From positions 10,882-72,542 of the forward strand of contig CAYJMQ010000001.1 in the NCBI GenBank assembly GCA_964371555.1: DNA of 61,661 bases, read 5' to 3'. This DNA is from an uncultured bacterium. GTDB taxonomy: Bacteria > Bdellovibrionota > JACOXK01 > 2-02-FULL-40-11. Positions within the stretch are counted from its first letter, which is position 1. Every line of letters begins with the position of its first letter. The position numbers and the translations under genes were made by a program. Positions 3,360 to 59,838 of this stretch are shown in pieces. The notes beneath the pieces are model-generated. The model did no database searches. It had not been told where the DNA came from and was given only the letters and a program-made list of their open reading frames with translations.

Positions 3360-3772
3360 CCAAAGAATTTTTTATGTTCTATCAAAAGACAACGATCCAT
3401 AACCACATCCATTCCATTGGATATCGCTTTTTGCGCGGCCTGCTCGTGTTCCAACCCGAGCTGCATCCAGACTGCTTTGGCCCCAATTTTAATCGCTTGG
3501 TCAACAATTTCCGGAATGAATTCGACACGGCGGAAGATATCGACAATGTCAATCGGGAATGGGATTTCTGAAAGTGAGGTGTACGCTTTCTCCCCCAGTA
3601 CTTCTTCTGTGTCCGGGCGGACGGGTACAATCTTATACCCTTTGGACTGCAGGTAGCTTGATACCTCATAGCTCGGTTTCGTGGGATCGGGAGAGAGACC
3701 CACAACGGCAATTGTTTTTGTTTGCTCAAGAAGCGCTTTGATTTGTGAGTCTTGGGTCAGTATGCTGGTCAT
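3356..3772 (-). CDS. CoA-binding domain protein (YccU/YneT-like)
   Basis: TIAVVGLSPDPTKPSYEVSSYLQSKGYKIVPVRP is a typical CoA-binding fold N-terminus. Start taken at the internal ATG (MTSILTQ). Confidence 0.75.
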   Translation of the reverse strand: MTSILTQDSQIKALLEQTKTIAVVGLSPDPTKPSYEVSSYLQSKGYKIVPVRPDTEEVLGEKAYTSLSEIPFPIDIVDIFRRVEFIPEIVDQAIKIGAKAVWMQLGLEHEQAAQKAISNGMDVVMDRCLLIEHKKFFG

Positions 3773-5627: not shown

Positions 5628-5786
5628 CTTGCTTCTTTCTCCCATGAATTAATGCCGTCCTTTTGCTTTCCTGCGTTTAATTTCAACCAGAAGCTTGTCA
5701 TAGATGATCACCGTGTGTCAATACAAATGACCTTGAAATCACTAGGGACTTGGTGATAAATTTTCTCTCTTGACCCTTTACAGATG

Positions 5787-6695
5787 GTTGATCAGGCATT
5801 AGGAACGATGGAATTTGGGCGGGTGATTAAAAAATGAAAGAAAAGACCATTTCAGAGTTAGCAAAAGAATTATATGAGGCAATGACGGATCCTGAAATAG
5901 GAGAAAGACAGTGGAATAGATCAGATGACGAAGATAAAAAAATTGAAGAGTTCTGCGCACGTGTTCAAGATAAGAAAAAAATATCTGACGCATTTATTGA
6001 GATGTATTTTCAGTATCGGCGGCCTCTCTATTATTTTAATCTTTTTTATTTTCTGAAGAAATATGCCAATTGGAAAGATTTTATAGAACGTATCCGGAAT
6101 GAATATCACACGCTTATCAATGCGTTTGATAAAGAAAAACCGAACGAAAAAAATGACGTGCTCATTGATGAAGATTGGGATATCTTAAAACATGAGGAAA
6201 ACTTACCCTATCCTTCTGAATTATTTAAATCGCGTGTGGAGTATTTTTTGCAAAAACAAGATTACAAGAAAGCAGACGGCTATCTTTCTCTTTTTTATGA
6301 GAAGGGCAAAGAGGGGGCTGAATATATTTCAGAGAATGTTAGGATTTTTTTTAAGAAATACGAAGAACTTAAAAAAGCAGGGGAAACCGATGATCAGAAT
6401 ATATTTGGTCTTATCTGTGGTTTACTGCGTGGGCTTATGTATGATGGTTCTGCCAAGTGGAGTATATCTTTATTTCGAGAGTTTATTTCGAAAGATTTAC
6501 GGTTTCTTTCTGAGGCCAGGCAGCTTATGGCAAAAGTTATAGGGCGACTCGATGACCTACATCCCCTGGATCCAATGAGAGAAAAGCCATTTTTTTTAGA
6601 ATCAGACAAAGAAATTCTCAAAGCCTTCTTCAAAGAAATATCTTTGCATGGTGTGAAGAAATAGCAGCGTTTGAACGGATGAATCCTGCAACGCC
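5787..6695 (+). repeat. Direct repeat R1 (partner R2 at 6857-7782)
   Basis: Shared left edge TTGATCAGGCATTAGGAACGATGG and shared right edge GATGAATCCTGCAACGCC. 6206-6695 is identical to 7293-7782 by eye, and the 5' part is diverged. Confidence 0.9.
5834..6664 (+). CDS. Hypothetical protein, paralogue 1 (276 aa)
   Basis: Long ORF with no recognised domain. The C-terminal ~150 aa are identical to the 6903-7751 product. Confidence 0.7.
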   Translation: MKEKTISELAKELYEAMTDPEIGERQWNRSDDEDKKIEEFCARVQDKKKISDAFIEMYFQYRRPLYYFNLFYFLKKYANWKDFIERIRNEYHTLINAFDKEKPNEKNDVLIDEDWDILKHEENLPYPSELFKSRVEYFLQKQDYKKADGYLSLFYEKGKEGAEYISENVRIFFKKYEELKKAGETDDQNIFGLICGLLRGLMYDGSAKWSISLFREFISKDLRFLSEARQLMAKVIGRLDDLHPLDPMREKPFFLESDKEILKAFFKEISLHGVKK

Positions 6696-6856
6696 CATTA
6701 AAAGCGACTACCCTAACTTTCATGGAGATGGACTCACCTCCGGAAAAGCTCGGGAGTGGGATATCCAAAATTTGGATTATATTCAATATAAGGGAGAGTA
6801 CCACCTTTTTCCAGAGGGGTTTGTGGACCAATTTGACGAGGTTGATAAAATTCCTT

Positions 6857-7782
6857 TTGATCAGGCATTAGGAACGATGGAATTTGGACGGGTGATAAAG
6901 AAATGACAAAGAAGATGAGCCAAACTTTAGCAGATGAATTATATGAAGCCATAAAAACACCTGGAACTCAGTGGGATTTATCATCAAATCGAGATAAGGC
7001 GATTGAGGATTTCTGTGAACGTATTCAAGATAAACAAAAGATCTCCAAGGCATTTATTGAAATGTATTTACAGCGCAGACGGTCTATAGATCTAGATAAT
7101 AGAGCCTTGGATTTTTATTGTAATATTTTTTATTACATTAAAAAGTATGGAAACTGGGCAGAGTTTATAAAACGAATTGAAAAAGAATATAACACGCTTA
7201 TCAATGCGTTTGATAAAGAAAAACTGAACGAAAAAAATGACGTGCTCATTGATGAAGATTGGCATACTTTGAAAGCTGGGGGCATTCACTCTCCCTATCC
7301 TTCTGAATTATTTAAATCGCGTGTGGAGTATTTTTTGCAAAAACAAGATTACAAGAAAGCAGACGGCTATCTTTCTCTTTTTTATGAGAAGGGCAAAGAG
7401 GGGGCTGAATATATTTCAGAGAATGTTAGGATTTTTTTTAAGAAATACGAAGAACTTAAAAAAGCAGGGGAAACCGATGATCAGAATATATTTGGTCTTA
7501 TCTGTGGTTTACTGCGTGGGCTTATGTATGATGGTTCTGCCAAGTGGAGTATATCTTTATTTCGAGAGTTTATTTCGAAAGATTTACGGTTTCTTTCTGA
7601 GGCCAGGCAGCTTATGGCAAAAGTTATAGGGCGACTCGATGACCTACATCCCCTGGATCCAATGAGAGAAAAGCCATTTTTTTTAGAATCAGACAAAGAA
7701 ATTCTCAAAGCCTTCTTCAAAGAAATATCTTTGCATGGTGTGAAGAAATAGCAGCGTTTGAACGGATGAATCCTGCAACGCC
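6857..7782 (+). repeat. Direct repeat R2 (partner R1 at 5787-6695)
   Basis: See R1. It ends 32 nt from the 3' end of tRNA-Val. Confidence 0.9.
6903..7751 (+). CDS. Hypothetical protein, paralogue 2 (282 aa)
   Basis: Paralogue of 5834-6664 with a divergent N-terminal half and an identical C-terminal half. Confidence 0.7.
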   Translation: MTKKMSQTLADELYEAIKTPGTQWDLSSNRDKAIEDFCERIQDKQKISKAFIEMYLQRRRSIDLDNRALDFYCNIFYYIKKYGNWAEFIKRIEKEYNTLINAFDKEKLNEKNDVLIDEDWHTLKAGGIHSPYPSELFKSRVEYFLQKQDYKKADGYLSLFYEKGKEGAEYISENVRIFFKKYEELKKAGETDDQNIFGLICGLLRGLMYDGSAKWSISLFREFISKDLRFLSEARQLMAKVIGRLDDLHPLDPMREKPFFLESDKEILKAFFKEISLHGVKK

Positions 7783-20094: not shown

Positions 20095-22284
20095 ATGTTT
20101 CGAAGATTTCCGAGACGGCATCTTTTTTTGACGGTTTTTCTTTGTCTGGGGATTGTTCGAGGCTTGATTTGGAAGCCACATTCTCCTACAGGCTATTTTG
20201 ATTCTCCACATCGTATCTGCGGGGCAGTCGGATTTCCGTCCGACAGTATTCTAAAAGAATTAACCCTAAAAGAATTAACCATTGATGAAAAAAAGATCTG
20301 GGGGCATCTTGAGATTTTCCTGTCTTCAAAAATAAAGAATCATCGAAAAATTCGCCCCGTTGGCACACGGATCTGCTTTTCAGGGATCGTCCGTGAGGTC
20401 CGAAACTTTGGTATTCCGGCTGAATTTGATATGCGGCGAAAAATGCTCTCAAAAAAAATCTGGGGGAGGGTTTTTTTGGGACGCAAAGATTCGATTCAAA
20501 TTCAAAAAAACTCCGCTTTTTATCCTGTTGAGATCCTGAGGGAGCAGTTTTTTCACTATCTGGATCGATTCCAGTCTGGGGGGAGGCTTCTTAAGATGGT
20601 TGTTTTGGGAATACCTGCGATGACACGTGAGCAGCGCGATGATTTTATCGCGACCGGCCTCTTGCACGCTGTGGTGATTTCCGGTCAAAATATCGCGCTC
20701 CTTTTTTTCTTTTCCTTTTCGCTTCTTTATTGGCTTTTTTCGAGATCCGAATACATTCTCCTTCATTGGCCACTGCAGAGGATTCTTGTTTTCTTATCTT
20801 CAGCCATTCTTTTCTTTTTCTATTTTTTCTCGGGAGGGGAAATTCCAATTCTCAGGGCGAGTCTTATGGCCTTTTCTTCATTGATCGCGCTCTTAAGTTC
20901 GAGGCCCCAAAATGGACTCTATGCGTTGTCTGTGGCGACGGCGCTGATTTTAAATTTTATCCCCTCTTCGGCTCTGGATCCCTCCTTTCAACTCTCTTTT
21001 ATTTCTGTATTGGGGCTCTGCCTGACCCGTTTTTTTATTTCAGATATTCAAAAGAATCTCTGGAAAATGATATTCTTTTCCACGCTGATCTGCACAATCG
21101 TAACAGCCCCGATCGTGATTTATTATTTTCACAGGTTTTCTCTTATTGGAATTGCCGCAAATCTGGTTGTTACACCGCTCATGAGTTTTTTGATTCTTCC
21201 GGGTTCTTTTCTTATTACTTTTTTTTATTTTATTTCTGAACCTGTTTGTCATGTTTTAATGATGATTTTTGAGCCCCTGGCGCGATGGCTATTTTCTTTT
21301 ATCCATCTCCTTGCTTCTTTTCCTTTGAGCTCCGTGATTGTAAGGCCCCCTTCATTGCCCAGCCTTTGTCTCGTCTATGTCGGAATGGCGCTTCTTTTTT
21401 TCCAAAAGAAAAAGTTCTCATCAAAAAATTGGCTAACCGCTGTTTTGGCAGGTCTCTTTTTATTTTTTTTGTTTCCCGATCGGATGGGAGTTTTTTTCAA
21501 AAATGGGGGAGATCTTAAAATCTCTTTTCTAAGTGTTGGGCAGGGCGATTCAACACTCATAGAATTTCCTGATGGGGGGACGATGCTGGTCGATGCCGGC
21601 GGGATTCATCCTCATTTTGATATCGGCGAAAGACTTTTGGCTCCCTATCTTTGGAAAAAGGGGATCCGAACCATCGATGTATTGATTTTGACCCATTCGG
21701 ATTTTGACCATACGGATGGGGCGAGATTTTTGATCGATCATTTTGATGTAAAAGAAATGTGGATTTCGCAATGGAGAGGCGGAATTCATTACGAACATAT
21801 TTTGGAACTTTCAGAAATAAAAAATATCCCGGTTTATTTGATTTCAAAAGAGACAGGCATAAAGATTTTTAAAGGGGTTGAATTTCAATTTTTGAATCCA
21901 AAAAATGTATTTGAAAAAGCGACCGATAATCACCAATCGATTGTATTCAAATGCAGATACAAAAATTTTTCTGTCCTGTTTACAGCCGATATTGAAAAGG
22001 ATGTGGAAGAGGAGATCTCGTATTTCCCGCTTCAAAGCACTGTCTTAAAGGTTCCTCATCATGGCTCGAAAACGTCGAGCAGTCTCTCATTTTTACGCTC
22101 CGTAAAACCAAAATTTGCCGTTATCAGTTCAGGCTACGCGAATCGTTTTGGACATCCGCATGATGAGGTACTGCGGCGATACCGGGAGCTCGGTATCCCC
22201 CTCTTTCGGACCGATCAGGAGGGGACATTGGAAATTCGAACCGATGGTTCGTCGAGCTATTTCTTGAAGAAACCACATGTCTGA
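20095..22284 (+). CDS. comEC: DNA internalisation-related competence protein ComEC/Rec2
   Basis: Polytopic competence domain followed by a metallo-beta-lactamase domain (LILTHSDFDHTDG ... VPHHGSKTS). Confidence 0.85.
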   Translation: MFRRFPRRHLFLTVFLCLGIVRGLIWKPHSPTGYFDSPHRICGAVGFPSDSILKELTLKELTIDEKKIWGHLEIFLSSKIKNHRKIRPVGTRICFSGIVREVRNFGIPAEFDMRRKMLSKKIWGRVFLGRKDSIQIQKNSAFYPVEILREQFFHYLDRFQSGGRLLKMVVLGIPAMTREQRDDFIATGLLHAVVISGQNIALLFFFSFSLLYWLFSRSEYILLHWPLQRILVFLSSAILFFFYFFSGGEIPILRASLMAFSSLIALLSSRPQNGLYALSVATALILNFIPSSALDPSFQLSFISVLGLCLTRFFISDIQKNLWKMIFFSTLICTIVTAPIVIYYFHRFSLIGIAANLVVTPLMSFLILPGSFLITFFYFISEPVCHVLMMIFEPLARWLFSFIHLLASFPLSSVIVRPPSLPSLCLVYVGMALLFFQKKKFSSKNWLTAVLAGLFLFFLFPDRMGVFFKNGGDLKISFLSVGQGDSTLIEFPDGGTMLVDAGGIHPHFDIGERLLAPYLWKKGIRTIDVLILTHSDFDHTDGARFLIDHFDVKEMWISQWRGGIHYEHILELSEIKNIPVYLISKETGIKIFKGVEFQFLNPKNVFEKATDNHQSIVFKCRYKNFSVLFTADIEKDVEEEISYFPLQSTVLKVPHHGSKTSSSLSFLRSVKPKFAVISSGYANRFGHPHDEVLRRYRELGIPLFRTDQEGTLEIRTDGSSSYFLKKPHV
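20251..20280 (+). repeat. 15-bp perfect tandem duplication inside comEC (encodes KELTLKELT)
   Basis: CTAAAAGAATTAACC x2, read directly. Confidence 0.9.
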
Positions 22285-30462: not shown

Positions 30463-31855
30463 AATTTTAAGTCAGCTGGAATCCCTATTTCCAGAGAAAA
30501 TTTCTCCAAAAATTTCAATTAACGAGAAAGATCTGCTTCTGCACGCCGGCGATCTGTGGCCGCGAAAATTAATCCGTCAAAGGCTAGGGGAAAAGATTGA
30601 ACTCCCGCTGGCGGTGGTTCGTCCTTCATCGACGGAGGATGTTCAAAAAATCGTTCAGTGGGCAAACAGGGAAAAAATCGCGCTGATCCCTTATGGAGGG
30701 GGAACGGGGGTCTGCGGCGGGACGCTCCCTGTCGTTCAAAGTGTCGCGGTCGATCTCAAGGAACTCAATAAAATTAAAGAAATCAATCTCGACTCGCTCT
30801 ATGTGACTTCTGAAGCGGGAATTTTGGGAGGGGAGTTGGAAAAACGGCTCAATGAAAAAGGGGTTTCGCTCTGTCACTTTCCAACCGCTTATGCGATTTC
30901 AACACTGGGCGGCTGGATTTCAACGCGCGCATCGGGGCAGATGTCTACCGCTTACGGATCGATCGAAAATATGGTGTTGGCCCTAAAGGGGGTGCTTCCG
31001 ACCGGGGAGCGCATCGAGACAAAACTTGTTCCGAGATCTGCTGCCGGATTTTCAGTAAAAGACCTTTTTATCGGGGGTGAGGGAACGATGGGAATTGTGA
31101 CCGAGGCAACCTGCCAGGTGCACAGACTCCCTTCGCTCCAGGAGTTTCTTTCATTTTCAGTCGGCTCGGTTCGGGAGGGGCTGGAGGCAATCCGGAAACT
31201 GATTCAAAAAGGAATACGCCCCGCTGTGGTTCGCTTTTATGATGAGATGGATACTCAACTTGCGCTTTCTGAAATGGGACTTGACACATCGGGAAATCTT
31301 TTGGTCTTTGTTTTCCAGGGAGAAAAAGAAATAGTCCAATTCCAGAGGGTGCAGACAGAAAAAGAAATATCGGCTGTCGGTAAAAATCTTGGAGAAAAAC
31401 CTGCCCGCCATTGGTGGGATCATCGTTTTGATTTGGATCATCATAAGTTAACGCAGATTCTTTCGCAGGAAGGGATGATACTTGACACCATAGAAGTTGC
31501 GGCGACATGGAGCAATCTCCAAGGGCTCTATGAATCGATGAAGAAGGCGATGTCTGAAGCGGGGGTTGCAATCCTCGCTCATTTTTCGCATTTCTATCAT
31601 ACCGGAGGATCGATCTATTTTACCTTTTTTGGAAATTTCCCTGATAAGGAGACATTAGAAAAATACGATCTTGTCTGGGAAAGGGCGATGGAGGCATGCC
31701 TTGCGGCAAAAGGCACGATTAGTCATCATCATGGCATTGGCCTTTTGCGCAAAAAATGGATTAAACGTGAACTGGAAAGCGGCTGGGATCTGATGGATAA
31801 AATTAAAAAGACGCTCGATCCCAACCATGTTCTTAATCCCCAAAAAATCGTATGA
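30452..31855 (+). CDS. FAD-linked oxidase (PCMH-type), alkyl-dihydroxyacetonephosphate synthase-like
   Basis: FAD_binding_4-like N-terminus (LAVVRPSSTEDVQKIVQWANREKIALIPYGGGTGV). The C-terminus GTISHHHGIGLLRKKWIK closely resembles the eukaryotic AGPS stretch SISHHHGVGKLRKQWL (recalled from memory) rather than the GEHGIG of GlcD/D-LDH. Confidence 0.7.
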   Translation: MRDKILSQLESLFPEKISPKISINEKDLLLHAGDLWPRKLIRQRLGEKIELPLAVVRPSSTEDVQKIVQWANREKIALIPYGGGTGVCGGTLPVVQSVAVDLKELNKIKEINLDSLYVTSEAGILGGELEKRLNEKGVSLCHFPTAYAISTLGGWISTRASGQMSTAYGSIENMVLALKGVLPTGERIETKLVPRSAAGFSVKDLFIGGEGTMGIVTEATCQVHRLPSLQEFLSFSVGSVREGLEAIRKLIQKGIRPAVVRFYDEMDTQLALSEMGLDTSGNLLVFVFQGEKEIVQFQRVQTEKEISAVGKNLGEKPARHWWDHRFDLDHHKLTQILSQEGMILDTIEVAATWSNLQGLYESMKKAMSEAGVAILAHFSHFYHTGGSIYFTFFGNFPDKETLEKYDLVWERAMEACLAAKGTISHHHGIGLLRKKWIKRELESGWDLMDKIKKTLDPNHVLNPQKIV

Positions 31856-32784
31856 ATTCCACGGTTGTGATTGTGAATCCAAAGGCGGGCTCTTTGGGGG
31901 AAGCTATGGGCCGCGCTGGAAAGAAATGGAGGGATATAGCCAAAAAGTGTGATTTTTTTGGCCCGTATGAAGAAATCTATTCGAAACGGATCGGCCATAT
32001 TGAGGAGTTGACCCGGGAATGTCTGAAAAAGGGGGCTCAAAGAATTGTCATTGCGGGGGGGGATGGTTCGTTATCGGAAGCGCTCAACGGTTTTTTTGAA
32101 AATGACAAGCCGATTCGTGACGATGCTGTTTTAGGTTCGGTTCCGCTGGGGACCGGATCTGATTTTTTAAAAACCTTTGGTATCTCCAATGTCGATCAGG
32201 CGGTGGAAGCGCTTAAAAAAAATCGCATTACCTCCATAGATATCGGTGAAATCAGATCTCTGCATCAGCCCCGAAAGAGGCTTTTTTTAAATATCGCAAG
32301 TTTTGGTTGTTCGGGAGAGGTGGTGCGAAAAGTAAATGCGTTATCCCCGCTTCAAAAAAAGTTATTAGGGGGGGGGCTTTCTTATTTTTGGGCAACGCTT
32401 TCTACATTTCTAACCTATAAAAATTCGCTGATAGAATTGGAAATTGAGGGGAAAGGAAAGAGCGGATTTAAGACCAGCAATATCTTTGTCTGTAATGGAA
32501 AATATTGTGGAGGGGGGATGCTTTGGGGACCGAATGCCGATATCAGTGATCGTCTGTTTGATCTTACGATTGTCAAAGAAATTTCAAAATTGAGAGGGTT
32601 CTATGAGATGGGAAAAATCTATAAAGGTCGTGTTCTCGAGATTGATGCTGTGGAGCAAATTCGCTGCCAAGAATTTGTTGCGATGTCAGATGAACATGTG
32701 ACTATCGAAGCGGACGGCGATCTCTTTGGGACTTTACCCGCGCTTTTCCGGATTTATCCTCATAAGATCAAATTCAATATCTAG
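31852..32784 (+). CDS. Diacylglycerol kinase-family lipid kinase (YegS/BmrU-like)
   Basis: N-terminal VVIVNPKAGS and the DAGK catalytic motif RIVIAGGDGSLSEALNG. ATGA overlap with the upstream gene. Confidence 0.85.
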   Translation: MNSTVVIVNPKAGSLGEAMGRAGKKWRDIAKKCDFFGPYEEIYSKRIGHIEELTRECLKKGAQRIVIAGGDGSLSEALNGFFENDKPIRDDAVLGSVPLGTGSDFLKTFGISNVDQAVEALKKNRITSIDIGEIRSLHQPRKRLFLNIASFGCSGEVVRKVNALSPLQKKLLGGGLSYFWATLSTFLTYKNSLIELEIEGKGKSGFKTSNIFVCNGKYCGGGMLWGPNADISDRLFDLTIVKEISKLRGFYEMGKIYKGRVLEIDAVEQIRCQEFVAMSDEHVTIEADGDLFGTLPALFRIYPHKIKFNI

Positions 32785-32882
32785 ATTCTGCTGAAAAAGT
32801 GTCATTCTGAGCGCAAAGCGCGAAGAATCCCAGCGGAGATGCTTCGGGACTTCGTCCCTCAGCATGACTTTTTCAGCAGAAT
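32785..32882. mobile_element. 98-bp hairpin MITE, copy A, flanked by direct repeats TATCTAG (32778-32784 / 32884-32890)
   Basis: Terminal inverted repeats ATTCTGCTGAAAAAGT / ACTTTTTCAGCAGAAT and inner imperfect arms GTCATTCTGAG / CTCAGCATGAC. A near-identical second copy is at 59741-59838. Confidence 0.8.
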
Positions 32883-33015
32883 CTATCTAGAGATATTAAA
32901 GAAAGATTAAAAAAGGAAATTTGTGCTTTCATGTTTTTAAAAATGGGTTACAATTCTCTTTAGGACGTTAGTCTGGTCATTGAGTTAAACAGTGGAACGT
33001 GGGTGGAAGAGAGAA

Positions 33016-33657
33016 GTGATTTTTTCACATATCATAATAAAAAAGACATTTAAAATCTTAAGCGCCAGTGGTGTGGCGGTGTTTCTCTTTAGCTGCGGAG
33101 GAGGCGGAGGGCCGGGCGACATTCCTCAAACGGCGCCGTCTATAGCCGTTGAAACACCACAGAAGACCGTCCTGTCAGTGGCTGTTGAAGGATTGGCGGC
33201 CAACGAAAAGAGGACGGTATTTTTCTCTGATGCGCAAGGCAATAAAATTGCAGAGGCTCAAACATTTGATGGAAAGGCATCCATTGAAGCCTTTCTTCGG
33301 CAAAGTGAAAGCGGTTTCTTTCGGGTAAGGATTCAAAGAGAAGGACTCCCCGATCTGGATACTGCTGTTCAAGTTCAAGCAGGGCAGCAGGGTATTGCTG
33401 TTCAAGTAACACCTGCCACCACCCTTGCGAGTCTTTTGGGGAGAACATTCAATGCCTCAGGACAGGAAGGCCTGCAGAGAGCAATTCGCTGTTACGGCGA
33501 GATTATTAAAACATTAGCTCGACCATCAGTTGAAAATGCCCTTTTGGAATTGGAAAATTTGCCGAAAAGTCCGGATTTAAATACGCTTAAAGGAGGAACC
33601 AGTGCGCTTCAGGAAGTTTTGCGCCAGGTGTTTGCTCGGATCAATACTTGTCCTTAA
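33016..33657 (+). CDS. Hypothetical lipoprotein (cargo X, gene 1)
   Basis: A GTG at 33016 gives MIFSHIIIKKTFKILSASGVAVFLFSCGGGGG, i.e. signal plus lipobox. The longest ORF starts at 32992. No recognised domain. Confidence 0.6.
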   Translation: MIFSHIIIKKTFKILSASGVAVFLFSCGGGGGPGDIPQTAPSIAVETPQKTVLSVAVEGLAANEKRTVFFSDAQGNKIAEAQTFDGKASIEAFLRQSESGFFRVRIQREGLPDLDTAVQVQAGQQGIAVQVTPATTLASLLGRTFNASGQEGLQRAIRCYGEIIKTLARPSVENALLELENLPKSPDLNTLKGGTSALQEVLRQVFARINTCP

Positions 33658-34942
33658 TCAGTTTGAGCAGGAGAGCCTGGCACAGGAAGTTAAGCTATGC
33701 GACCCAGTGACACTTTTAAGTCAGGTCGACGTTTCCCCTCTTTCTGATTTGAACCTTGGAAGTGACCGAAGATTACTCAAAATTCTTGATGACTTTGATT
33801 TTGATGGAAAAGCAATGTTGCTCAAAGAAAAAATCAATTTTCAAGATGGGTGTTCTGTGGAAATCGATCTGACTGTTCTGGGAATAGAGCTTTTTTCAAT
33901 TGAGAAAAATTTAAAAACGGGACAAGAAACGGAGATCAAGTATCCGCTTCTTGCACCAGGGTTCAACGGCGAGATTACCAGGTTGGTATTTACGGGACTG
34001 ATGTATGAAGCGGATGACGAAAATATCCTTGAAGGAGATCGGCATACAGACACGGCGAAGGATATGTTGGCTGATTTCATTAAGGGAGCGCGTGAGCTTT
34101 TTCCATCCCGGGATCCGCAAAGTCCCACAAACTTTGTTTGTAATAGCGTTATCATCTCAGCCGCCCGTGATAAAGTTTCCTTTACCAAATCATTTATTGC
34201 GCGTGATGTCGCAGGAAATTCCGCGCTAAAAAAAACCGTGCAGCTGAATTTAATCTTAAGCGGCTTTATAAGATGCTGCTGTCCAATCTCAGAAAAACTT
34301 CTGGGATTGAATGAGGGGGCATGCAGTGTGATCACGACTTCCCGGCTGATGACAGAAAATGGCCTGACTTCAGGAAGAAGCTTTATTCCCGATACTCAAA
34401 TGGAGAAGATCTCGTCGCGGCGTCTTCTCGGTCAAAATTTATTCAACACCCTTTCGGATAGCGTTAAGACGCAGATCAGTCAGAACAGCGAAATCAATTT
34501 CTTGGTCAAGAAGCGGTTTGGAACGTCGGATTTGAATGTTCATCCATTGGTGAGCGGTTTTGAAGTGCAGATGAATGAAAAGAGATCGTTCCTCAATCCT
34601 CTTCTTTCAGATCTTCCGATGGCAGATCTTCTGACAGCTGAAATCAAGGCATTTATCTTTTTTAAGCCAGCGGAATTTTCTATAAAGGGAGCGATCGCCT
34701 CGGGAGGAGCGAGAACCTCGAATTTGCCAACGGAAAAAGAAACCTTTCTTTTTACGGTCATGGGACGCCGGGGCATTGAAGGGATCGGCATCGTGGTCCG
34801 CGACATCAATAGAATAGTTACGACCACAGTCCTCTTTTTTGATGATCAGGCGTCGGCGCTTATTTTGGCCGAACAGCCATTCGATGTTTCTTTAGGTCTC
34901 TTCCCCGCTGTCGCCTTTGACTGCGGTGGGATCGATCGATAA
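33602..34942 (+). CDS. Hypothetical protein, 446 aa (cargo X, gene 2)
   Basis: Long uninterrupted ORF with no recognised domain. Start uncertain because it overlaps gene 1 by 56 nt. Confidence 0.6.
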   Translation: MRFRKFCARCLLGSILVLNQFEQESLAQEVKLCDPVTLLSQVDVSPLSDLNLGSDRRLLKILDDFDFDGKAMLLKEKINFQDGCSVEIDLTVLGIELFSIEKNLKTGQETEIKYPLLAPGFNGEITRLVFTGLMYEADDENILEGDRHTDTAKDMLADFIKGARELFPSRDPQSPTNFVCNSVIISAARDKVSFTKSFIARDVAGNSALKKTVQLNLILSGFIRCCCPISEKLLGLNEGACSVITTSRLMTENGLTSGRSFIPDTQMEKISSRRLLGQNLFNTLSDSVKTQISQNSEINFLVKKRFGTSDLNVHPLVSGFEVQMNEKRSFLNPLLSDLPMADLLTAEIKAFIFFKPAEFSIKGAIASGGARTSNLPTEKETFLFTVMGRRGIEGIGIVVRDINRIVTTTVLFFDDQASALILAEQPFDVSLGLFPAVAFDCGGIDR

Positions 34943-34943
34943 A

Positions 34944-34997
34944 CGAAACTTGAGATATTGACCTGCTAAAAATACCACCCGGCGCCGAGTCCTCCAT
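34944..34997. repeat. B': exact 54-bp copy of 37033-37086 (3' ends of the ATP-grasp and OMP genes)
   Basis: CGAAACTTGAGATATTGACCTGCTAAAAATACCACCCGGCGCCGAGTCCTCCAT is identical at both loci by eye. Confidence 0.9.
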
Positions 34998-35061
34998 GCG
35001 GACGGCGATCTCTTTGGGACTTTAACCCGCGCTTTTCCGGATTTATCCTCATAAGATCAAA
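34998..35061. repeat. A': copy of 32710-32772 (3' end of the lipid kinase CDS) with one extra A
   Basis: GCGGACGGCGATCTCTTTGGGACTTTA(A)CCCGCGCTTTTCCGGATTTATCCTCATAAGATCAAA. It abuts B' with no spacer. Confidence 0.9.
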
Positions 35062-35172
35062 GTCTGGTGCTAAAGAAGGATATGTCTTCAAACGAGAGCA
35101 CTTTTAGATTTGCCTTTCCTAACAGTGGAAAATTCTTTTCAGGGTTGACCCATATGTGATATCAATATCGCC

Positions 35173-35769
35173 ATGACCAAAGACATCCAGATACAGGCAG
35201 AAGTTTTGTCGGAACAGGTGTGTCAGTTTACGGTGGATCAGCCTCTTTATCCCGCTGGTACGGCATATTTTGCAAATAAAGAGGCCGCGAAAGGCTCACC
35301 CCTTGCGGAGGCATTATTTGATTTAGAGGGGGTCGCATCACTTGTTGTTTTGGAGAATGTTTTAAAAGTAACACGAAATCAGTTTGATGATTGGCGTCTA
35401 TTGGCTCAAAAAATAGGAACGGTCATTCGCGAGCAAATTCGCTCGGGTAGAGCGCTTATCTCGCCAGATTTAAAAAAGAATCTCCCTTCAGAAAAAGTCA
35501 TCAAAGAAAAAGTACAAAAATTATTTAATGGGGAGATCAATCCAGCTGTTGCGATGCATGGCGGCTCTGTTGAGTTAGTCGATGTTAAAGAAAACATCGT
35601 CTATGTGCGTCTCGGCGGGGGGTGTCAGGGATGCGGCATGGCCGATGTGACGCTCAAGCAGGGAATCGAACATGCGATTCGCAAAGTTGTCCCTGAAATT
35701 GGAGATATTTTGGATGTTACCGATCATGCCGGCGGGAGAAATCCGTATTATTCTCCCCAAAAGAAATGA
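35173..35769 (+). CDS. Nfu/NifU-like Fe-S cluster protein (Nfu_N + NifU C-terminal domain)
   Basis: C-terminal domain VAMHGGSVELVDV...LGGGCQGCGMADVTLKQGIE with the CxxC motif. Confidence 0.75.
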   Translation: MTKDIQIQAEVLSEQVCQFTVDQPLYPAGTAYFANKEAAKGSPLAEALFDLEGVASLVVLENVLKVTRNQFDDWRLLAQKIGTVIREQIRSGRALISPDLKKNLPSEKVIKEKVQKLFNGEINPAVAMHGGSVELVDVKENIVYVRLGGGCQGCGMADVTLKQGIEHAIRKVVPEIGDILDVTDHAGGRNPYYSPQKK

Positions 35770-37058
35770 ACGAAAGAATTTTACTCCTGATTTCTACCAC
35801 AAGCTACCGAACACATGCCTTTGTTGCGGCTGCCAGTCGATTGGGGCTTTCGATGACTGTCTGTTCTGAACGGCCGAGTACTTTGCAGGCGAAGAATCCG
35901 CAAGGTTTTATCACAGCAGATTTTTTAAATCCTGAATCATTGACAAAAGTGGTTTTTGAATTTTCAAAAAAATATCCGATTGACGCTGTGATGGGTGTGG
36001 ATGATCAGACAGTCATTCCAGCCGCTCAGATTGCGGAGGTGTTGTCGTTAAAGCACAACCCAGTTTCTGCTGTTTATGCGACACGAAACAAGTATGAAAT
36101 GCGCAAACGGTTGGAAGGACATCTCCCTAGTCCCCGTTTTGGGCTCTTCACATTTTATGATGATGCCGCAAAAGTCGCTTCCTCGTTAGGTTTCCCCTGT
36201 GTCATTAAGCCGCTGTCATTGTCTCAAAGTCGTGGTGTGATGAGAGCGGATGATTTAGAAGATCTGAAAGGTAAAATCGCCCGATTGAAGAAAATTCTTT
36301 CCGATTCGTCGCCAGGTGTGGGCGAATGTTTTGAGAGTTATCTTGTTGAAGAATTTATTCCGGGAAAAGAGATAGCTGTGGAGGGATTGCTGATAAATGG
36401 AGAGCTTCGTATTCTTGCCATTTTTGATAAGCCTGATTCCCTGGATGGCCCCTATTTTGAAGAGACGATATATTTAACCCCAACTGAGCTCTCTCTTTCC
36501 ATCCAGGAACAAATTTCTGAAATAACTTCAAAAATTGTTTCCTTACTTGGCCTTTTTGAAGGGCCGATCCATGCAGAGTTTCGTCTGAATGAAAAGGGTA
36601 TCTATCTGATTGAGATAGCAGCGCGATCGATGGGCGGATTTTGTTCGAGCGTGTTGCGATTTGTGAAAAGTAAAGAAGAAGATCCTATCTCTTTGGAGGA
36701 GCTGATCTTTAGACAAAAACTTGGGAGGCAAAAACTTGGAATGGAAACGGAAGGGTATGAAAGAGAGAAAGATGCTGCGGGTGTTTTGATGATTCCTATT
36801 TCCAAAAGAGGGATTTTAAGGGGTGTTCATGGGAAAGAAACTGCAAGGGCTGTTCCAGGCATTGTTGATATGATCATCTCACTCAAGGAAGGAGAAGAAC
36901 TTATTCCACTTCCCGAGGGGGGACGATATCTTGGCTTTATATTTGCCCGTGGGAGAGCCCGTGGGAAAGCCCATGGGAAAGCCCATGGGAAAGAAAGAAG
37001 AGCGGTAGAACTTGCGCTTCGAGAAGCCCATTCGAAACTTGAGATATTGACCTGCTAA
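35766..37058 (+). CDS. ATP-grasp domain enzyme (carboxylate-amine ligase-like), substrate unknown
   Basis: The pattern NKYEMRKRLE...FPCVIKPLSLSQSRGV...LVEEFIPGKEIAVEG...IEIAARSMGG is typical of ATP-grasp folds. ATGA overlap with the nfu-like gene. Confidence 0.75.
   Translation: MNERILLLISTTSYRTHAFVAAASRLGLSMTVCSERPSTLQAKNPQGFITADFLNPESLTKVVFEFSKKYPIDAVMGVDDQTVIPAAQIAEVLSLKHNPVSAVYATRNKYEMRKRLEGHLPSPRFGLFTFYDDAAKVASSLGFPCVIKPLSLSQSRGVMRADDLEDLKGKIARLKKILSDSSPGVGECFESYLVEEFIPGKEIAVEGLLINGELRILAIFDKPDSLDGPYFEETIYLTPTELSLSIQEQISEITSKIVSLLGLFEGPIHAEFRLNEKGIYLIEIAARSMGGFCSSVLRFVKSKEEDPISLEELIFRQKLGRQKLGMETEGYEREKDAAGVLMIPISKRGILRGVHGKETARAVPGIVDMIISLKEGEELIPLPEGGRYLGFIFARGRARGKAHGKAHGKERRAVELALREAHSKLEILTC
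36711..36740 (+). repeat. 15-bp tandem duplication inside the ATP-grasp gene (encodes RQKLGRQKLG)
   Basis: AGACAAAAACTTGGG AGGCAAAAACTTGGA. Confidence 0.85.
36945..36992 (+). repeat. 12-bp tandem repeat x4 inside the ATP-grasp gene (encodes ARGRARGKAHGKAHGK)
   Basis: GCCCGTGGGAGA GCCCGTGGGAAA GCCCATGGGAAA GCCCATGGGAAA. Confidence 0.9.
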
Positions 37059-37612
37059 AAATACCACCCGGCGCCGAGTCCTCCATATGGGACCGCTTTC
37101 ACATTGGAAAGTGAGAGAAGAAAGCTAAATTCCGCAAAGATTGCAAGGCCGGAATCAGAGAGATAATGAGCGCCTATGGAAAGCGGGAGAATGACAATTC
37201 CATTTTTAAGTTTTGTTCCATCGTCTTTTACCATTCCCAGTTTTATTGCCTGTTCAGATTTCTGCGCGATTTTTTCACCGGAAGCGGCGCTTCTCCAATA
37301 AGCGAGACCGGAACCGAGGTAAGGTGTAAAGGGTTGATCGAGCACAAGATATTTGGCTTGGGCGGTATATGTATCGAAATGGATTCCCGATCCCAAACCG
37401 ATTCCCGCATTTACAAGCGAATACCAGTTGAAATCGGCTGTAAGGCCAATAATCCCTAAGGGGCCGCCGACCATCGTTCCAACGCCGAATGTGTAATCAT
37501 CGCGTGGGTTAAACGACAGCTGGGGTTCTTTAGAGTCTTGAGAATCTGCGGCGAAGGTGTGGAGTGCGATTGTAAAAAGGGATAGGAACAAAACGATTTT
37601 TAAATTTTCCAT
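37055..37612 (-). CDS. Small outer-membrane beta-barrel protein
   Basis: Signal peptide MENLKIVLFLSLFTIALHTFA, Gly/aromatic-rich strands, and C-terminal GAGWYF. Confidence 0.7.
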   Translation of the reverse strand: MENLKIVLFLSLFTIALHTFAADSQDSKEPQLSFNPRDDYTFGVGTMVGGPLGIIGLTADFNWYSLVNAGIGLGSGIHFDTYTAQAKYLVLDQPFTPYLGSGLAYWRSAASGEKIAQKSEQAIKLGMVKDDGTKLKNGIVILPLSIGAHYLSDSGLAIFAEFSFLLSLSNVKAVPYGGLGAGWYF

Positions 37613-38647: not shown

Positions 38648-39694
38648 ATGAAGGTGAAGCAGTTTCTGAAACTGAAGGCATTGTTTCTGATCTTTTTAGA
38701 TCTTTGGCTTATGTTGATGTCTCAAGACCTTTTGGCGCTGCATAAAGCAAAATCCCAGAAAATCAAACTTTCGATTTTAGCCCCTGAAGGCTCTACCTGG
38801 ATGAACATTATGCATGAGTTCAACAAAGAGCTCAAAGAACGGACAAACGGAGGGCTGGAGTTTAAAATTTATGCGGGGGGGGTGTCGGGTGACGAGTCGG
38901 ATGTCATACGAAAAATGAGGATTGGTCAGATTCACGCGGGGGGATTTACGGGAGTCGGGCTTGGTCAGATTGTTTCTGATGTGCGCGTTCTTGAGCTTCC
39001 TTTTATTTTCCGTGAGGCGGATGAAGTCGATTTTGTAACCTCTGTTTTAAAAAAAGAGTTTGAAAAAAAATTTGAAGAGAAGGGATTTATTTTTTTGGGA
39101 TGGGCTGAGGCCGGGTTTGTAAATATTTTTTCTACAAAGCCTTTGAAAACAGCCAAAGATCTTCAAAAGGCCAAGATGTGGGCATGGGAGGGGGATCCCC
39201 TTGTGAAAGCCCTTTGCAAAGAGTTTGATATTGTTCCCGTGCCGCTTTCCATCACAGATGTCTTAACCTCGCTTCAGACAGGTTTGATCGATTCGTTTTA
39301 CGCCCCCCCCCTTGCCGCGATCGCGCTTCAGTGGTTTACGAAGGTAAAGTATATGACACAACCGTATCTGGCCAATGCGACGGGCGCTATGGTGATGACA
39401 AAGAAATTTCATGATCAGATTCCAAAGCAGAACCAACAAATTTTAAAAGAAGTGGCCGATAAATATTCAAAAAGAATCATTGAGGCGACACGAAAAGATA
39501 ACCAGGAGTCGTATCAGCAGCTTAAAAAACAGGGGATCGAATTTGTGACAATCGCGCCGAACGAACTTGAAGAGATGACAAAGACGAGCTTGAAAGTGCA
39601 GAGCGCGTTGATTGATCGTCTCTACCCCAAAGAACTTTTAGAGAAAGTCCTTTCAAAAATCCGGGAATATCGAAAAAGCAAAGTTCAATCATGA
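38648..39694 (+). CDS. dctP: TRAP transporter substrate-binding protein (DctP family)
   Basis: About 350 aa periplasmic protein with a DctP-type N-terminus (KLSILAPEGSTWMN), followed by the Q and M genes. Confidence 0.8.
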   Translation: MKVKQFLKLKALFLIFLDLWLMLMSQDLLALHKAKSQKIKLSILAPEGSTWMNIMHEFNKELKERTNGGLEFKIYAGGVSGDESDVIRKMRIGQIHAGGFTGVGLGQIVSDVRVLELPFIFREADEVDFVTSVLKKEFEKKFEEKGFIFLGWAEAGFVNIFSTKPLKTAKDLQKAKMWAWEGDPLVKALCKEFDIVPVPLSITDVLTSLQTGLIDSFYAPPLAAIALQWFTKVKYMTQPYLANATGAMVMTKKFHDQIPKQNQQILKEVADKYSKRIIEATRKDNQESYQQLKKQGIEFVTIAPNELEEMTKTSLKVQSALIDRLYPKELLEKVLSKIREYRKSKVQS

Positions 39695-40191
39695 AGTGGA
39701 CAAAGGCTCTTAATGATAGAATTTCCAGGGTTGAAAGTGTTCTGCTTGTGACCATTGTGCTTTTTATGATTGTGCTTTCGTTTCTTCAGGTGGTTCTCCG
39801 GAATTTTTTTTCCGGTGGTATTACCTGGGCCGATGTTTGTCTTAGAAATCTTGTGCTTTGGGTCGGTTTTATAGGGGCGTCACTCGCAACAAAGGAAAAT
39901 CGGCATATTACGGTCGATGTGGTTACAAAGTTTGTTTCCCCGCTTTTACGGGAAATTGCGGATCTCCTTGCGAGCGCCGTCTCTGTCATCATCGGTTTTA
40001 TCTTCGTCTATGCGTCTGTCCGTTTTGTGATTTCAGAATACAAGGCAGAGACGATCGCATTCTTGGGGATCCCTTTCTGGGTTGTTCAGATGATTATCCC
40101 ATTTGGCTTTTCAATGATTACTTTCCGTTTTGTGCTGAAGGTCATTGAGGATATCGAAGATCTGAGAATCCAATTGAAAGGCTCCAGGTGA
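39691..40191 (+). CDS. dctQ: TRAP transporter small permease (DctQ family)
   Basis: 166 aa with 4 TM segments and 4-nt overlaps on both sides. Confidence 0.8.
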   Translation: MKWTKALNDRISRVESVLLVTIVLFMIVLSFLQVVLRNFFSGGITWADVCLRNLVLWVGFIGASLATKENRHITVDVVTKFVSPLLREIADLLASAVSVIIGFIFVYASVRFVISEYKAETIAFLGIPFWVVQMIIPFGFSMITFRFVLKVIEDIEDLRIQLKGSR

Positions 40192-41468
40192 TATTTCTCC
40201 TTGTGGGAGTTTCTCTTGTTCTTCTGGCGCTATTGGGCGCCCCCCTTTTTGCTGTCATTGGGGCAGCCGCCTTTTTTGCATTCCATTGGGTCGAGATTGA
40301 TATCTCCGCGGTGATCATTGAAATGTATCGCATCGCTTCGGCGCCGATGCTCCTTACGATTCCCCTTTTTACCTTTGCCGGATATGTCATGTCTGAAAGT
40401 GGAACCCCGAAGCGATTTGTAGAGCTTGCAAAAGCGATTGTCGGCTGGATGCCAGGGGGCATTGCGATTGTTTCGCTCCTTACATGCGCTTTTTTTACAG
40501 CCTTCACGGGCGCCTCTGGCGTGACGATTATTGCCCTGGGGGGATTTCTTTATCCGATTCTTATCTCTGAAAGATATTCTGAGAAATTCAGCCTCGGTCT
40601 TGTGACAACCTGCGGGAGTTTGGGGCTTCTCTTTCCGCCGTCGCTTCCGTTGATTTTATATGGATTGGTAGCCCAGGTCAGTATTGATCAGCTTTTTGTT
40701 GCCGGTATTTTTCCGGGCATACTTTTAATTATTCTTCTTTCTCTCTACAGCATGAAAAAGGGGATCTCTTTTCATGTGAAGAGGTCGCCTTTTGTCTTTA
40801 AAGAACTGATTCGAACATTTCGCGCGGCGATCTGGGAAGTCCCTCTCCCTTTCCTGATTTTGGGAGGGATTTACAGCGGCTTTATTACCGCAACGGAGGC
40901 TGCCGCGTTTGCCGCTTTTTATGTTCTCATTGTAGAGGCGTTTATCTATCAAGACGTCAGTTTAACATCGGATCTTCCAAGAATTATTCGGGAGAGCATG
41001 GTTTTAGTCGGCTCGATTCTCATTATTTTGGGATCAGCCCTGGGTCTGACCAATTATCTGATCGATGAGCAGATTCCGATGAAGATTCTCGAATTCATGA
41101 AGGTGTACGTCTCTGACAAAATCACATTTCTTATTGTGCTCAATATCTTTCTTCTGATTGTTGGATGTATTATGGATATTTTTTCCGCTATTGTCGTTGT
41201 GGTTCCGATGATTGTTCCGGTTGCGAGAGTTTTTGAGGTCGATCCGATTCATCTTGCGATTATTTTTCTGACGAATCTCGAGATTGGCTACCTGACCCCT
41301 CCGGTCGGGATCAATCTCTTTATTTCGTCGATGCGATTTCGAAAGCCCGTAACTTCTCTCTACCGTGTGTCTTTTCCGTTCCTGATGGTGCTGCTTCTTG
41401 CGCTTATCATTATTACTTATGTCCCGGATCTGTCGCTTTCGCTCGTGCGGTGGCTGGGGTTAAGGTAG
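40188..41468 (+). CDS. dctM: TRAP transporter large permease (DctM family)
   Basis: 426 aa polytopic protein with typical DctM segments (FTGASGVTIIALG; PPVGINLF). Confidence 0.9.
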   Translation: MIFLLVGVSLVLLALLGAPLFAVIGAAAFFAFHWVEIDISAVIIEMYRIASAPMLLTIPLFTFAGYVMSESGTPKRFVELAKAIVGWMPGGIAIVSLLTCAFFTAFTGASGVTIIALGGFLYPILISERYSEKFSLGLVTTCGSLGLLFPPSLPLILYGLVAQVSIDQLFVAGIFPGILLIILLSLYSMKKGISFHVKRSPFVFKELIRTFRAAIWEVPLPFLILGGIYSGFITATEAAAFAAFYVLIVEAFIYQDVSLTSDLPRIIRESMVLVGSILIILGSALGLTNYLIDEQIPMKILEFMKVYVSDKITFLIVLNIFLLIVGCIMDIFSAIVVVVPMIVPVARVFEVDPIHLAIIFLTNLEIGYLTPPVGINLFISSMRFRKPVTSLYRVSFPFLMVLLLALIIITYVPDLSLSLVRWLGLR

Positions 41469-59024: not shown

Positions 59025-59766
59025 CAAAACGCGCGCCTTGATTTTCAAAGCAGTTTCTTATCGTGAATATGACAAACGTGTGGATCTGCTCACGCGTGAT
59101 TATGGCAAAATCACTGTTGTTGCCCCTGCCGCCCAAAGAAGCCGAAAGCGTTTTTCCTCCGCGCTTGATACCCTCACTCATATTTCCGCCCATTACCGTG
59201 AAAAGCATGGTTATGGGATGGCACGCCTTGAAGAGATGACGGTGCTTGATGCTTTTTGTGTCCTCAAGAAGGACATAAAAAAAATTTCGTACGCAAGTTA
59301 TTTTTTGGAAATTGTCTGGCAGGCGATACGTGAGCCATCCCCCCCGCTCTTTGATTTTTTATTTTTTTTCCTCAAAGCCCTTGAAAAAACCCATCGTGAA
59401 GATTGGCTTGCCCGTTTCTTTGAAGCGAGAATTTTGCCAAAGATCGGTTATTTGCCAATGCTTCGCCAATGTGTGAAATGCAATGTGCCGAAAGGGGCTG
59501 TATCCGGGGAGATCTTATTCTCTGTTTCTTCCGGCGGTATTCTTTGCGCCGCATGCGCCGGGACAACCGGTGAGAGGGGGAGCCGGATTTCATCTCAGGC
59601 AATTCTCTTTTTGGACCGGATGATTTCTGAAGCAAAAATGTTTCCATTGAATGAAAAGATTTCAACAGAGCTCAAAGGTTTTCTCCCCTCTTTTCTTTTT
59701 CATCATCTGGAGAAAGAACCGAAATCGTATCCCTTTATAGATTCTGCTGAAAAAGTGTCTGTCTGA
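59011..59766 (+). CDS. recO: DNA repair protein RecO (C-terminal 8 codons supplied by MITE copy B)
   Basis: N-terminal OB region (ALIFKAVSYREYDKRVDLLTRDYGKI) and Cys motif CVKCNVP...CAACAG. The ORF runs into the element at 59741. Confidence 0.85.
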   Translation: MALFNKTRALIFKAVSYREYDKRVDLLTRDYGKITVVAPAAQRSRKRFSSALDTLTHISAHYREKHGYGMARLEEMTVLDAFCVLKKDIKKISYASYFLEIVWQAIREPSPPLFDFLFFFLKALEKTHREDWLARFFEARILPKIGYLPMLRQCVKCNVPKGAVSGEILFSVSSGGILCAACAGTTGERGSRISSQAILFLDRMISEAKMFPLNEKISTELKGFLPSFLFHHLEKEPKSYPFIDSAEKVSV

Positions 59767-59838
59767 GCGCAAAGCGCGAAGAATCCCAGCGGAGATGCTT
59801 CGGGACTTCGTCCCTCAGCATGACTTTTTCAGCAGAAT
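59741..59838. mobile_element. 98-bp hairpin MITE, copy B, flanked by 8-bp direct repeats CTTTATAG (59733-59740 / 59839-59846)
   Basis: Same termini and core as copy A with 2-3 substitutions. Inserted between the convergent recO and gmhB genes. Confidence 0.85.

Follow-up and report, generated by a model that had tools for sequence, protein, structure and literature searches.

C-terminal displacement has been described for rhs, cdiA and mafB: a new 3' end is added together with a short conserved stretch, and the old end is shunted downstream, where it persists as a silent orphan (Jackson et al. 2009, PMC2935791). The single crossover of a circle has been proposed to explain the retention of the old rhs tip (PMC2935791). 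Here we describe a locus at the 3' end of a lipid kinase gene, found in a stretch of 61,661 nucleotides (hereafter the window) from an uncultured groundwater bacterium, in which an end piece of the kinase gene (A) and a piece covering the convergent ends of two genes further downstream (B) each occur twice, in the order A - X - B'A' - Y - B. X is a block with two genes for secreted proteins, Y comprises an nfu and an ATP-grasp gene, and B' and A' are the orphan copies. The locus resembles rhs-type displacement in that the kinase body runs into a new, non-homologous 3' end (a unique FNI* after approximately 32772-32775), in that an orphan A' with the ancestral VWC* end lies behind the insert, and in that the ancestral downstream genes (nfu, ATP-grasp and an OMP-like gene) have been kept. 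Unlike rhs, cdiA and mafB, the gene concerned is a housekeeping-type lipid kinase and not a polymorphic toxin; unlike in the rhs type, the new tip measures only three codons, the payload being two separate secreted-protein genes; and unlike in rhs arrays, a single event is seen, whose scar keeps a copy of the far boundary (B'), the would-be closure joint of a fragment.

Homology-facilitated illegitimate recombination was invoked for the orphan T6SS immunity arrays of Vibrio cholerae (Kirchberger et al. 2017, PMC5361080; references 41, 42 and 47 therein). The present locus shares with this process one homologous anchor and one non-homologous joint, and with the V. cholerae arrays the gain of genes beside a conserved gene and the retention of the old downstream genes. 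Joints made in this way usually lie at microhomologies of 3-10 nt and are accompanied by the deletion of recipient DNA; unlike them, the joint found here is almost blunt, lies inside the homologous region and creates duplications of 54 and 63 nt. A ComEC-type gene (20095-22284, with Competence and metallo-beta-lactamase domains) is present in the window, which makes DNA uptake by natural transformation conceivable for this organism.

Campbell-type integration is the classic outcome of circular, non-replicating DNA entering a chromosome via one homology. As in Campbell merodiploids, direct repeats of the homology flank the insert, both "alleles" stand in tandem, and recombination between the repeats could resolve the locus to either of them; unlike in Campbell integrants, the homologies, at 54 and 63 nt, are very short, and the circle would be a self-ligated chromosomal fragment, with no plasmid or integrase element. 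A comparison is also due with misjoined strain haplotypes, in which two alternative contents likewise stand in series with duplicated shared ends. In contrast to such misjoins, the arms seen here are of unequal length, which no single k accommodates, the joint is free of gaps, and one arm carries a private frameshift.

Repeats A and B and the joint of their copies

The kinase gene (31852-32784, plus strand) encodes a 310-aa protein of the YegS/DAGK family (Pfam DAGK_cat, 7e-22; YegS_C, 2e-24) with a derived three-residue tail, FNI. Repeat A (32710-32772, plus strand) comprises the last conserved 21 codons of this live gene and encodes ADGDLFGTLPALFRIYPHKIK. Repeat A' (34998-35061, plus strand) agrees with A at 63 of 63 positions apart from one indel, an additional A at 35024/35025 that changes TTTACCC to TTTAACCC and shifts the frame of this orphaned kinase end. 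Repeat B occupies its native place (37033-37086), the surrounding context of which is kept in L008 and L009, two contigs of close relatives; it holds the final eight codons of the ATP-grasp gene (35766-37058) with their stop and the final ten codons, likewise with the stop, of a convergent 185-aa gene (37055-37612, minus strand). Its orphan copy B' (34944-34997), covering the same overlapping 3' ends, is identical at all 54 positions, and the bases next to the two copies are unlike on both sides (A at 34943 vs T at 37032; G at 34998 vs A at 37087). B' abuts A' with zero spacer, giving a scar of 118 bases in total that joins unrelated sequences; the kinase-A and B-OMP sides are seamless. The exact-match stretches in the repeat arms measure 54, 27 and 36 nt. 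The direct repeats A/A' bracket X plus B' or, equivalently, B'/B bracket A' plus Y. A preliminary description of this DNA, made from the sequence alone, had reported the 54/54 copy of B, the copy of A with one extra base directly behind B', the gene assignments of both source segments (kinase codons for A, the ends of the ATP-grasp gene and of the convergent OMP gene for B) and the resulting topology, and all of these stand. It had further appealed to a Campbell-type integration or a tandem duplication, and logic of this kind does turn out to be the only simple way to a B'|A' joint.

The expected chance count of a 54-nt exact repeat in 61.7 kb is approximately 1e-23. The only other repeats of at least 30 nt in the window are a pair of MITE copies and one pair of tandem paralogues, which excludes a chance origin of the B' and A' repeats. 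There are no shared bases (microhomology of zero) at the crossover point of B'|A'. The sequence normally found 3' of B (37088-37109) has 14 of 22 bases in common with the start of A (32710-32731), for which P is approximately 0.003 as estimated from 20,000 random position pairs; this partial match, which starts 1-2 nt off the crossover point, places a partial homology right at the joint, resembling natural illegitimate joints. The window contains no Ns. An Rfam scan of 30-40 kb yielded nothing, promoter and terminator scans gave background levels, and a hairpin in B/B' falls within the coding end of the OMP-like gene.

No second assembly with the B'|A' joint was found when a contig index was looked up by the kinase, nfu and ATP-grasp proteins of the window, which returned no record; those proteins of the window that are present in the protein collection are each credited to a single 72.5-kb contig. 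Metagenome DNA scans for the conserved core of B and for the 3' end of X2, the second gene of X, gave no matches, and a scan of a genome collection by the kinase gave one close relative only, whose contig stops within the kinase gene about 120 nt before A.

The original kinase end and the conserved core Y

The kinase search returned nine full-length homologues with 50-83% identity. In the alignment all nine end in xW[C/Y/V], and the live kinase of the window is alone in lacking this terminus; P0002 and P0003 terminate in exactly HKIKVWC, the live kinase in ...HKIKFNI. Its new tail, TTC AAT ATC TAG (FNI*, 32773-32784, plus strand), forms the left edge of X, since both the identity to A' and the alignment with the relatives' contigs L008, L009 and L011 stop at approximately 32772-32775. 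An FNI-tailed kinase was not found in any database searched. Directly behind A' lies GTC TGG TGC TAA (VWC*, 35062-35073, plus strand), a relic of the ancestral tail that agrees with L008 and L011 (GTCTGGTGTTGA) at 10 of 12 nucleotides and encodes VWC as in P0002 and P0003. With the extra A ignored, A' and 35062-35073 together encode ...HKIKVWC*, and the L008, L009 and L011 kinase ends, compared as nucleotides, can be aligned across A' as far as 35069-35073. The match to the HKIKVWC ends of the relatives indicates that A' and the bases following it are the original end of the kinase gene. The preliminary description had predicted that A' would close the kinase reading frame as ...VWC*, and this prediction is strongly borne out by the xW[C/Y/V] terminus of all nine homologues. 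The extra A is private to A', being absent from A and, in an alignment of all three, from L008, L009 and L011. Judged by the relatives, the A'-Y-B arrangement is ancestral and the FNI tail derived; in the cell, the kinase would now be without its conserved tryptophan-containing tail.

Y consists of a gene for an Nfu/NifU-like Fe-S scaffold (35173-35769, plus strand; Pfam NifU and Nfu_N; approximately 89-93% nucleotide identity to L008 and L009) and the ATP-grasp gene (plus strand; L-amino-acid-ligase-like; Pfam ATP-grasp_4, ATPgrasp_N and LAL_C2; 87-89% nucleotide identity to L008 and L009). The conserved right flank is the 185-aa gene, the stop of which overlaps that of the ATP-grasp gene; its product has a signal peptide and a C-terminal ...GAGWYF, and its nucleotide sequence is 84% identical to L008 6293-6882. 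It has no Pfam match, and "OMP" is inferred from the C-terminal motif. All three genes are intact in the window and syntenic with L008 and L009, the overall nucleotide identity of these contigs to the window being 82-93%. The order in L008 is kinase - AbiEi/AbiEii - nfu - ATP-grasp - 173-aa gene - OMP-like gene, and that in L009 is kinase - 151-aa gene (other strand) - nfu - ATP-grasp, so that both close relatives read kinase-...-nfu-ATP-grasp, one of the two orders that the preliminary description had envisaged for relatives. By this synteny, Y is conserved content of the near clade. In more distant relatives nfu and ATP-grasp are not at the kinase-adjacent position: one with 50% kinase identity reads kinase - 787-aa redoxin protein - 195-aa gene - TAtT - DctPQM, and another has an unrelated 635-aa gene after the kinase.

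Insertions recur in the stretch right behind the kinase, and the kinase/OMP interval is a recurrent insertion hot spot in this lineage. In L011, a MITE lies approximately 20 nt past the kinase stop. The same two gene boundaries hold a different small insert in every close relative: L008 has inserts at 2190-3772 (the AbiEi/AbiEii pair, after the kinase) and at 5758-6279 (the 173-aa gene, between ATP-grasp and OMP, with a sub-threshold Lcl_C match, E 0.03), and the post-kinase insert of L009 (1086-1541) is the gene of a 151-aa coiled-coil protein. The ATP-grasp gene of the window carries near its C-terminus (36945-36993) an in-frame 12-nt repeat in 4.1 copies (…GKAHGKAHGK…), which the orthologues in L008 and L009 lack and at which the alignments break. 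The end of the Logan contig L009 (3616, corresponding to window position 37085) misses the right end of B by 1 nt, which may be a coincidence or a graph branch; we gave it no weight as a sign of branching, since a SNP or a break in coverage is equally possible.

Block X and its home locus

Relative to the ancestral state, the locus has gained 2,289 nt (32773-35061, equivalently 32710-34997), that is, X with A on its left and B' on its right. The first gene of X, X1 (32992-33657, plus strand), encodes a predicted lipoprotein (…FLFSCGGGG) consisting of an Ig-like beta-sandwich and a helical bundle, with homologues P0109 (85%), P0110 and P0111; the second, X2 (33602-34942, plus strand), encodes a 446-aa secreted protein from a GTG start behind AGGAGG. 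Neither belongs to a Pfam family. The fold matches of the X1 structure model (pLDDT 75) are generic Ig-like domains, and the X2 model (pLDDT 36) is unusable. X1 is a mosaic with a signal peptide similar to that of P0111 and a mature part similar to P0109 (85%), and the lipoprotein gene is thus itself recombinant. The stretch 32992-33120 (residues ~10-45) is nearly identical to the signal-peptide region of P0111 and unlike P0109; over its whole length P0111 shows only 38% identity.

Besides X2 itself, very large protein libraries contain only two relatives of it, P0106 (49-51%) and P0107 (76 aa; 88% over the last 65 residues of X2), to which a truncated X2 gene on the JGI contig L019 can be added. 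The P0106 gene lies on L010, where no genes of the kinase locus were called and where a MITE follows. The 635-aa post-kinase gene of L012, which has the same length as P0106, was considered as an X2 homologue and rejected, BLASTP finding no homology; the equal length is a coincidence. P0107 is encoded on six contigs (L013-L018) from Hainich groundwater assemblies, one of which is in the MAG of the closest kinase relative, and these contigs hold only an X2 remnant, not the full X1-X2 pair. On the two longest (L013 and L014) the remnant follows a 70-aa VapB-like gene, with tRNA-Lys and tRNA-Glu upstream on L013; on L016 and L017 a 127-aa PIN gene is found upstream of it as well. Behind the remnant comes a convergent 163-aa gene, with a Wzy/glycosyltransferase cluster beyond it on the longer contigs. 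L019, which also carries P0109, reads VapB - PIN - X1 - X2 and has 80.6% nucleotide identity to 33136-34849 of the window. Comparison of L013 9926-10231 with L019 639-2602 identifies the 76-aa ORF as the product of an in-frame deletion that fused the first X1 codons to the last 66 X2 codons, as is also the case in L014-L018. On L013 this ORF stands behind a near-consensus TTGACA-N17-TATAAT promoter.

When the window is compared with the home-locus remnant, the homology stops exactly at the X2 stop codon (34942), 1 nt before B'. The tetranucleotide composition of X is native to this genome, which places the donor in the same lineage. X is a strain-specific import, the "home" of X1-X2 in relatives being a different, VapBC-linked locus. 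Protein and contig searches gave no X-only (kinase-X-OMP) allele, the species being barely sampled. The preliminary description had taken X and Y for alternative cargos of one locus; this view has to be amended in that the two are not equivalent, Y being conserved core and X an import with relatives elsewhere (VapBC - X1 - X2), and no X-only allele having been found.

Near the left end of X lies a MITE of 98 nt (32785-32882) with terminal inverted repeats of 19-20 nt and an 8-bp flanking duplication (ATATCTAG / CTATCTAG). A second copy in the window (59741-59838) is 96-98% identical and has a perfect 8-bp duplication, CTTTATAG. The target duplications end in TAG, and the core reads GTCATYCTGAGCG...GAAGRATC, a motif found twice against zero occurrences expected. 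A transposase for the element was not identified. The preliminary description had placed the MITE at the edge of X, which its own 8-bp target duplication contradicts. As the agent of the rearrangement it is ruled out by that duplication and by its position 12 nt inside X; it is a later passenger, neither the edge of X nor the maker of the A boundary. The 63-nt duplication would be implausibly long for the target-site duplication of a transposase, and X has no terminal inverted repeats. MITE-related copies also occur on L010 (3358-3386), L011 (~2265-2298) and L013 (18293-18363), and the Logan contigs of two relatives terminate in such copies; the family is probably abundant in this lineage.

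Proposed history and competing explanations

We propose that the joint is a true scar of recombination, one that belongs to the 3'-end displacement type and was left by the merger of an X and a Y allele, and give this reading a probability of about 0.55. Starting from the repeats, the polarity of the change and the foreign origin of X, we infer an X-only allele and a mechanism of joining as follows. The ancestral locus would have read kinase (...HKIKVWC*) - ~100 nt - nfu - ATP-grasp - convergent OMP-like gene. In a near-identical strain, X, made up of the lipoprotein gene and the secreted-protein gene from the VapBC-linked locus, would have replaced nfu and ATP-grasp over an interval whose ends lie 12 nt ahead of the kinase stop and 26 nt ahead of the ATP-grasp stop. 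B' next to X2 keeps the last 26 nt of the ATP-grasp gene, which shows that Y had once been present in the genome where the X/B joint arose. The X and Y versions would then have merged in one chromosome, one side being joined via homology (on the kinase/A or the B/OMP side) and the other closed by a nearly blunt, non-homologous join in which the B' end meets the A' start. This may have taken place by circularisation of a short linear fragment (A-X-B' or A'-Y-B) followed by a single crossover in A or B, or else by homology-facilitated illegitimate recombination, in which a fragment anchored on one side would have had its free end joined illegitimately. In either case the live kinase would have kept the incoming FNI tail, the old tail (A' with VWC*) would have become a dead fragment, moved downstream by 2,289 nt and later given its frameshifting A, and the cell would hold X as well as nfu and ATP-grasp. 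A more specific form of the circular route, in which the 118-nt B'A' joint is the closure joint of an integrase-free but recombination-proficient circle (a self-ligated chromosomal fragment of one allele) that integrated into the sister allele through one crossover within 54-63 nt, is in our view an unlikely one. Several points count against the merger: neither a kinase-X-OMP allele nor a second assembly of the joint was found, the joint has no true microhomology, and two rare steps are needed, the making of the X allele and the subsequent merging of the alleles.

In an assembly artefact, two co-existing strain haplotypes (kinase-X-OMP and kinase-Y-OMP) could have been placed end to end, so that B' and A' would be what remains of the shared ends of the branch contigs. 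The DNA comes from a metagenome-assembled genome with the locus on a single 72.5-kb NCBI contig, bubble branches placed end to end predict exactly A-X-B'-A'-Y-B, and B', at 54 nt, has the length k-1 for k = 55, a value often set in assemblers, and so gives a mild warning; the essentially blunt joint and the fact that no independent assembly of it turned up in the collections searched also fit. However, such an artefact should have both arms at k or k-1, and the arms measure 54 and 63/64 nt, the latter with only 27 nt before the A' indel, so that no single k fits both. There are no Ns or gap at the joint either. In a de Bruijn graph contig every k-mer over a joint must be present in the reads. 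A simple concatenation would not produce the 14/22 partial homology. The Y haplotype, moreover, would have to bear a frameshifted kinase gene, whereas a frameshift private to A' is what is expected of a dead copy and not of the live kinase of a second strain. We therefore consider a misassembly improbable.

The same topology would result from a tandem duplication if the 2,088-bp A-Y-B unit had been doubled by an illegitimate sister-chromatid join (B|A') and X had later taken the place of almost all of the first copy, between a point 12 nt ahead of the kinase stop and one 26 nt ahead of the ATP-grasp stop, with no X-only strain ever existing. Bacteria commonly show tandem duplications whose junctions have little homology or none; the redundant copy would have been free for overwriting, no intermediate without nfu and ATP-grasp would be required, and the genome has another tandem paralogue pair (5834-7751). 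Against this, a separate double-illegitimate replacement would be required whose extent happened to coincide almost exactly with one unit, crossing over of a homologous donor would have been more likely in the full-length B/OMP flank and would have erased the duplication, and nfu and ATP-grasp are duplicated in no relative, which makes a duplication that came first rather improbable. Neither an X-only allele nor a circle would be needed if everything had happened in one step, template-switching replicative repair having put X at a break in the kinase 3' end, copied B' as a 54-nt filler from 2 kb downstream and re-copied 63 nt as A'. Both short patches originate no more than 4.4 kb from the break, the switch from B to A falls at a partial homology, and the homology of X to the home locus breaks off cleanly with the X2 stop codon; yet templated fillers are poorly precedented in bacteria, being documented mainly in eukaryotic end joining, and the location of the filler exactly at an allelic X/B joint would be left unexplained, so that we see only a small chance for this course of events. 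The variety of the kinase/OMP interval, the content of which differs in every relative examined (AbiEi/AbiEii, the 151-aa gene, a MITE, the 787-aa redoxin protein and the unrelated 635-aa protein), might bring to mind a programmed cassette or switch in which a site-specific recombinase would recognise A and B and exchange or stack the cargos of this interval. Such a system is very improbable, because no integrase, transposase or recombinase is found among the genes scanned at 20.1-44.9 kb (those at 38648-41468 being identified solely by synteny with a relative's DctP/Q contig), A and B have no common motif save the weak 14/22 patch, the breakpoints vary between relatives, and the boundaries of A and B lie inside coding sequence.

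On the preferred reading, the merger of two alleles, the scar is a neat but unexceptional trace of genes gained horizontally and not a new kind of system. If real, it would be a clean natural example, from an uncultured groundwater bacterium, of gene gain at a conserved 3' end without loss, with all three breakpoints readable to the base and the ancestral state recoverable from relatives, and it would carry the displaced-3'-end pattern beyond the toxin loci in which it is known, to a metabolic gene of an ordinary kind. Should the circle be real, the joint would provide direct sequence evidence for a circular intermediate hitherto only hypothesised for 3'-end displacement (PMC2935791). The locus may also serve as a test case for telling true merodiploid joints from strain-mixture misassemblies in MAGs. 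Recombination between the short direct repeats could delete X plus B', restoring the old state, or A' plus Y, leaving an X-only locus. The scan found no terminator-like site on the plus strand between X2 and nfu, which suggests that X may read through into nfu. Elsewhere in the window, 5834-6664 and 6903-7751 are tandem paralogous genes (276 and 282 aa) with no Pfam match; 6201-6500 and 7288-7587 are 99% identical over 300 nt and the neighbouring parts 82-90%, a pattern that looks like recent gene conversion.
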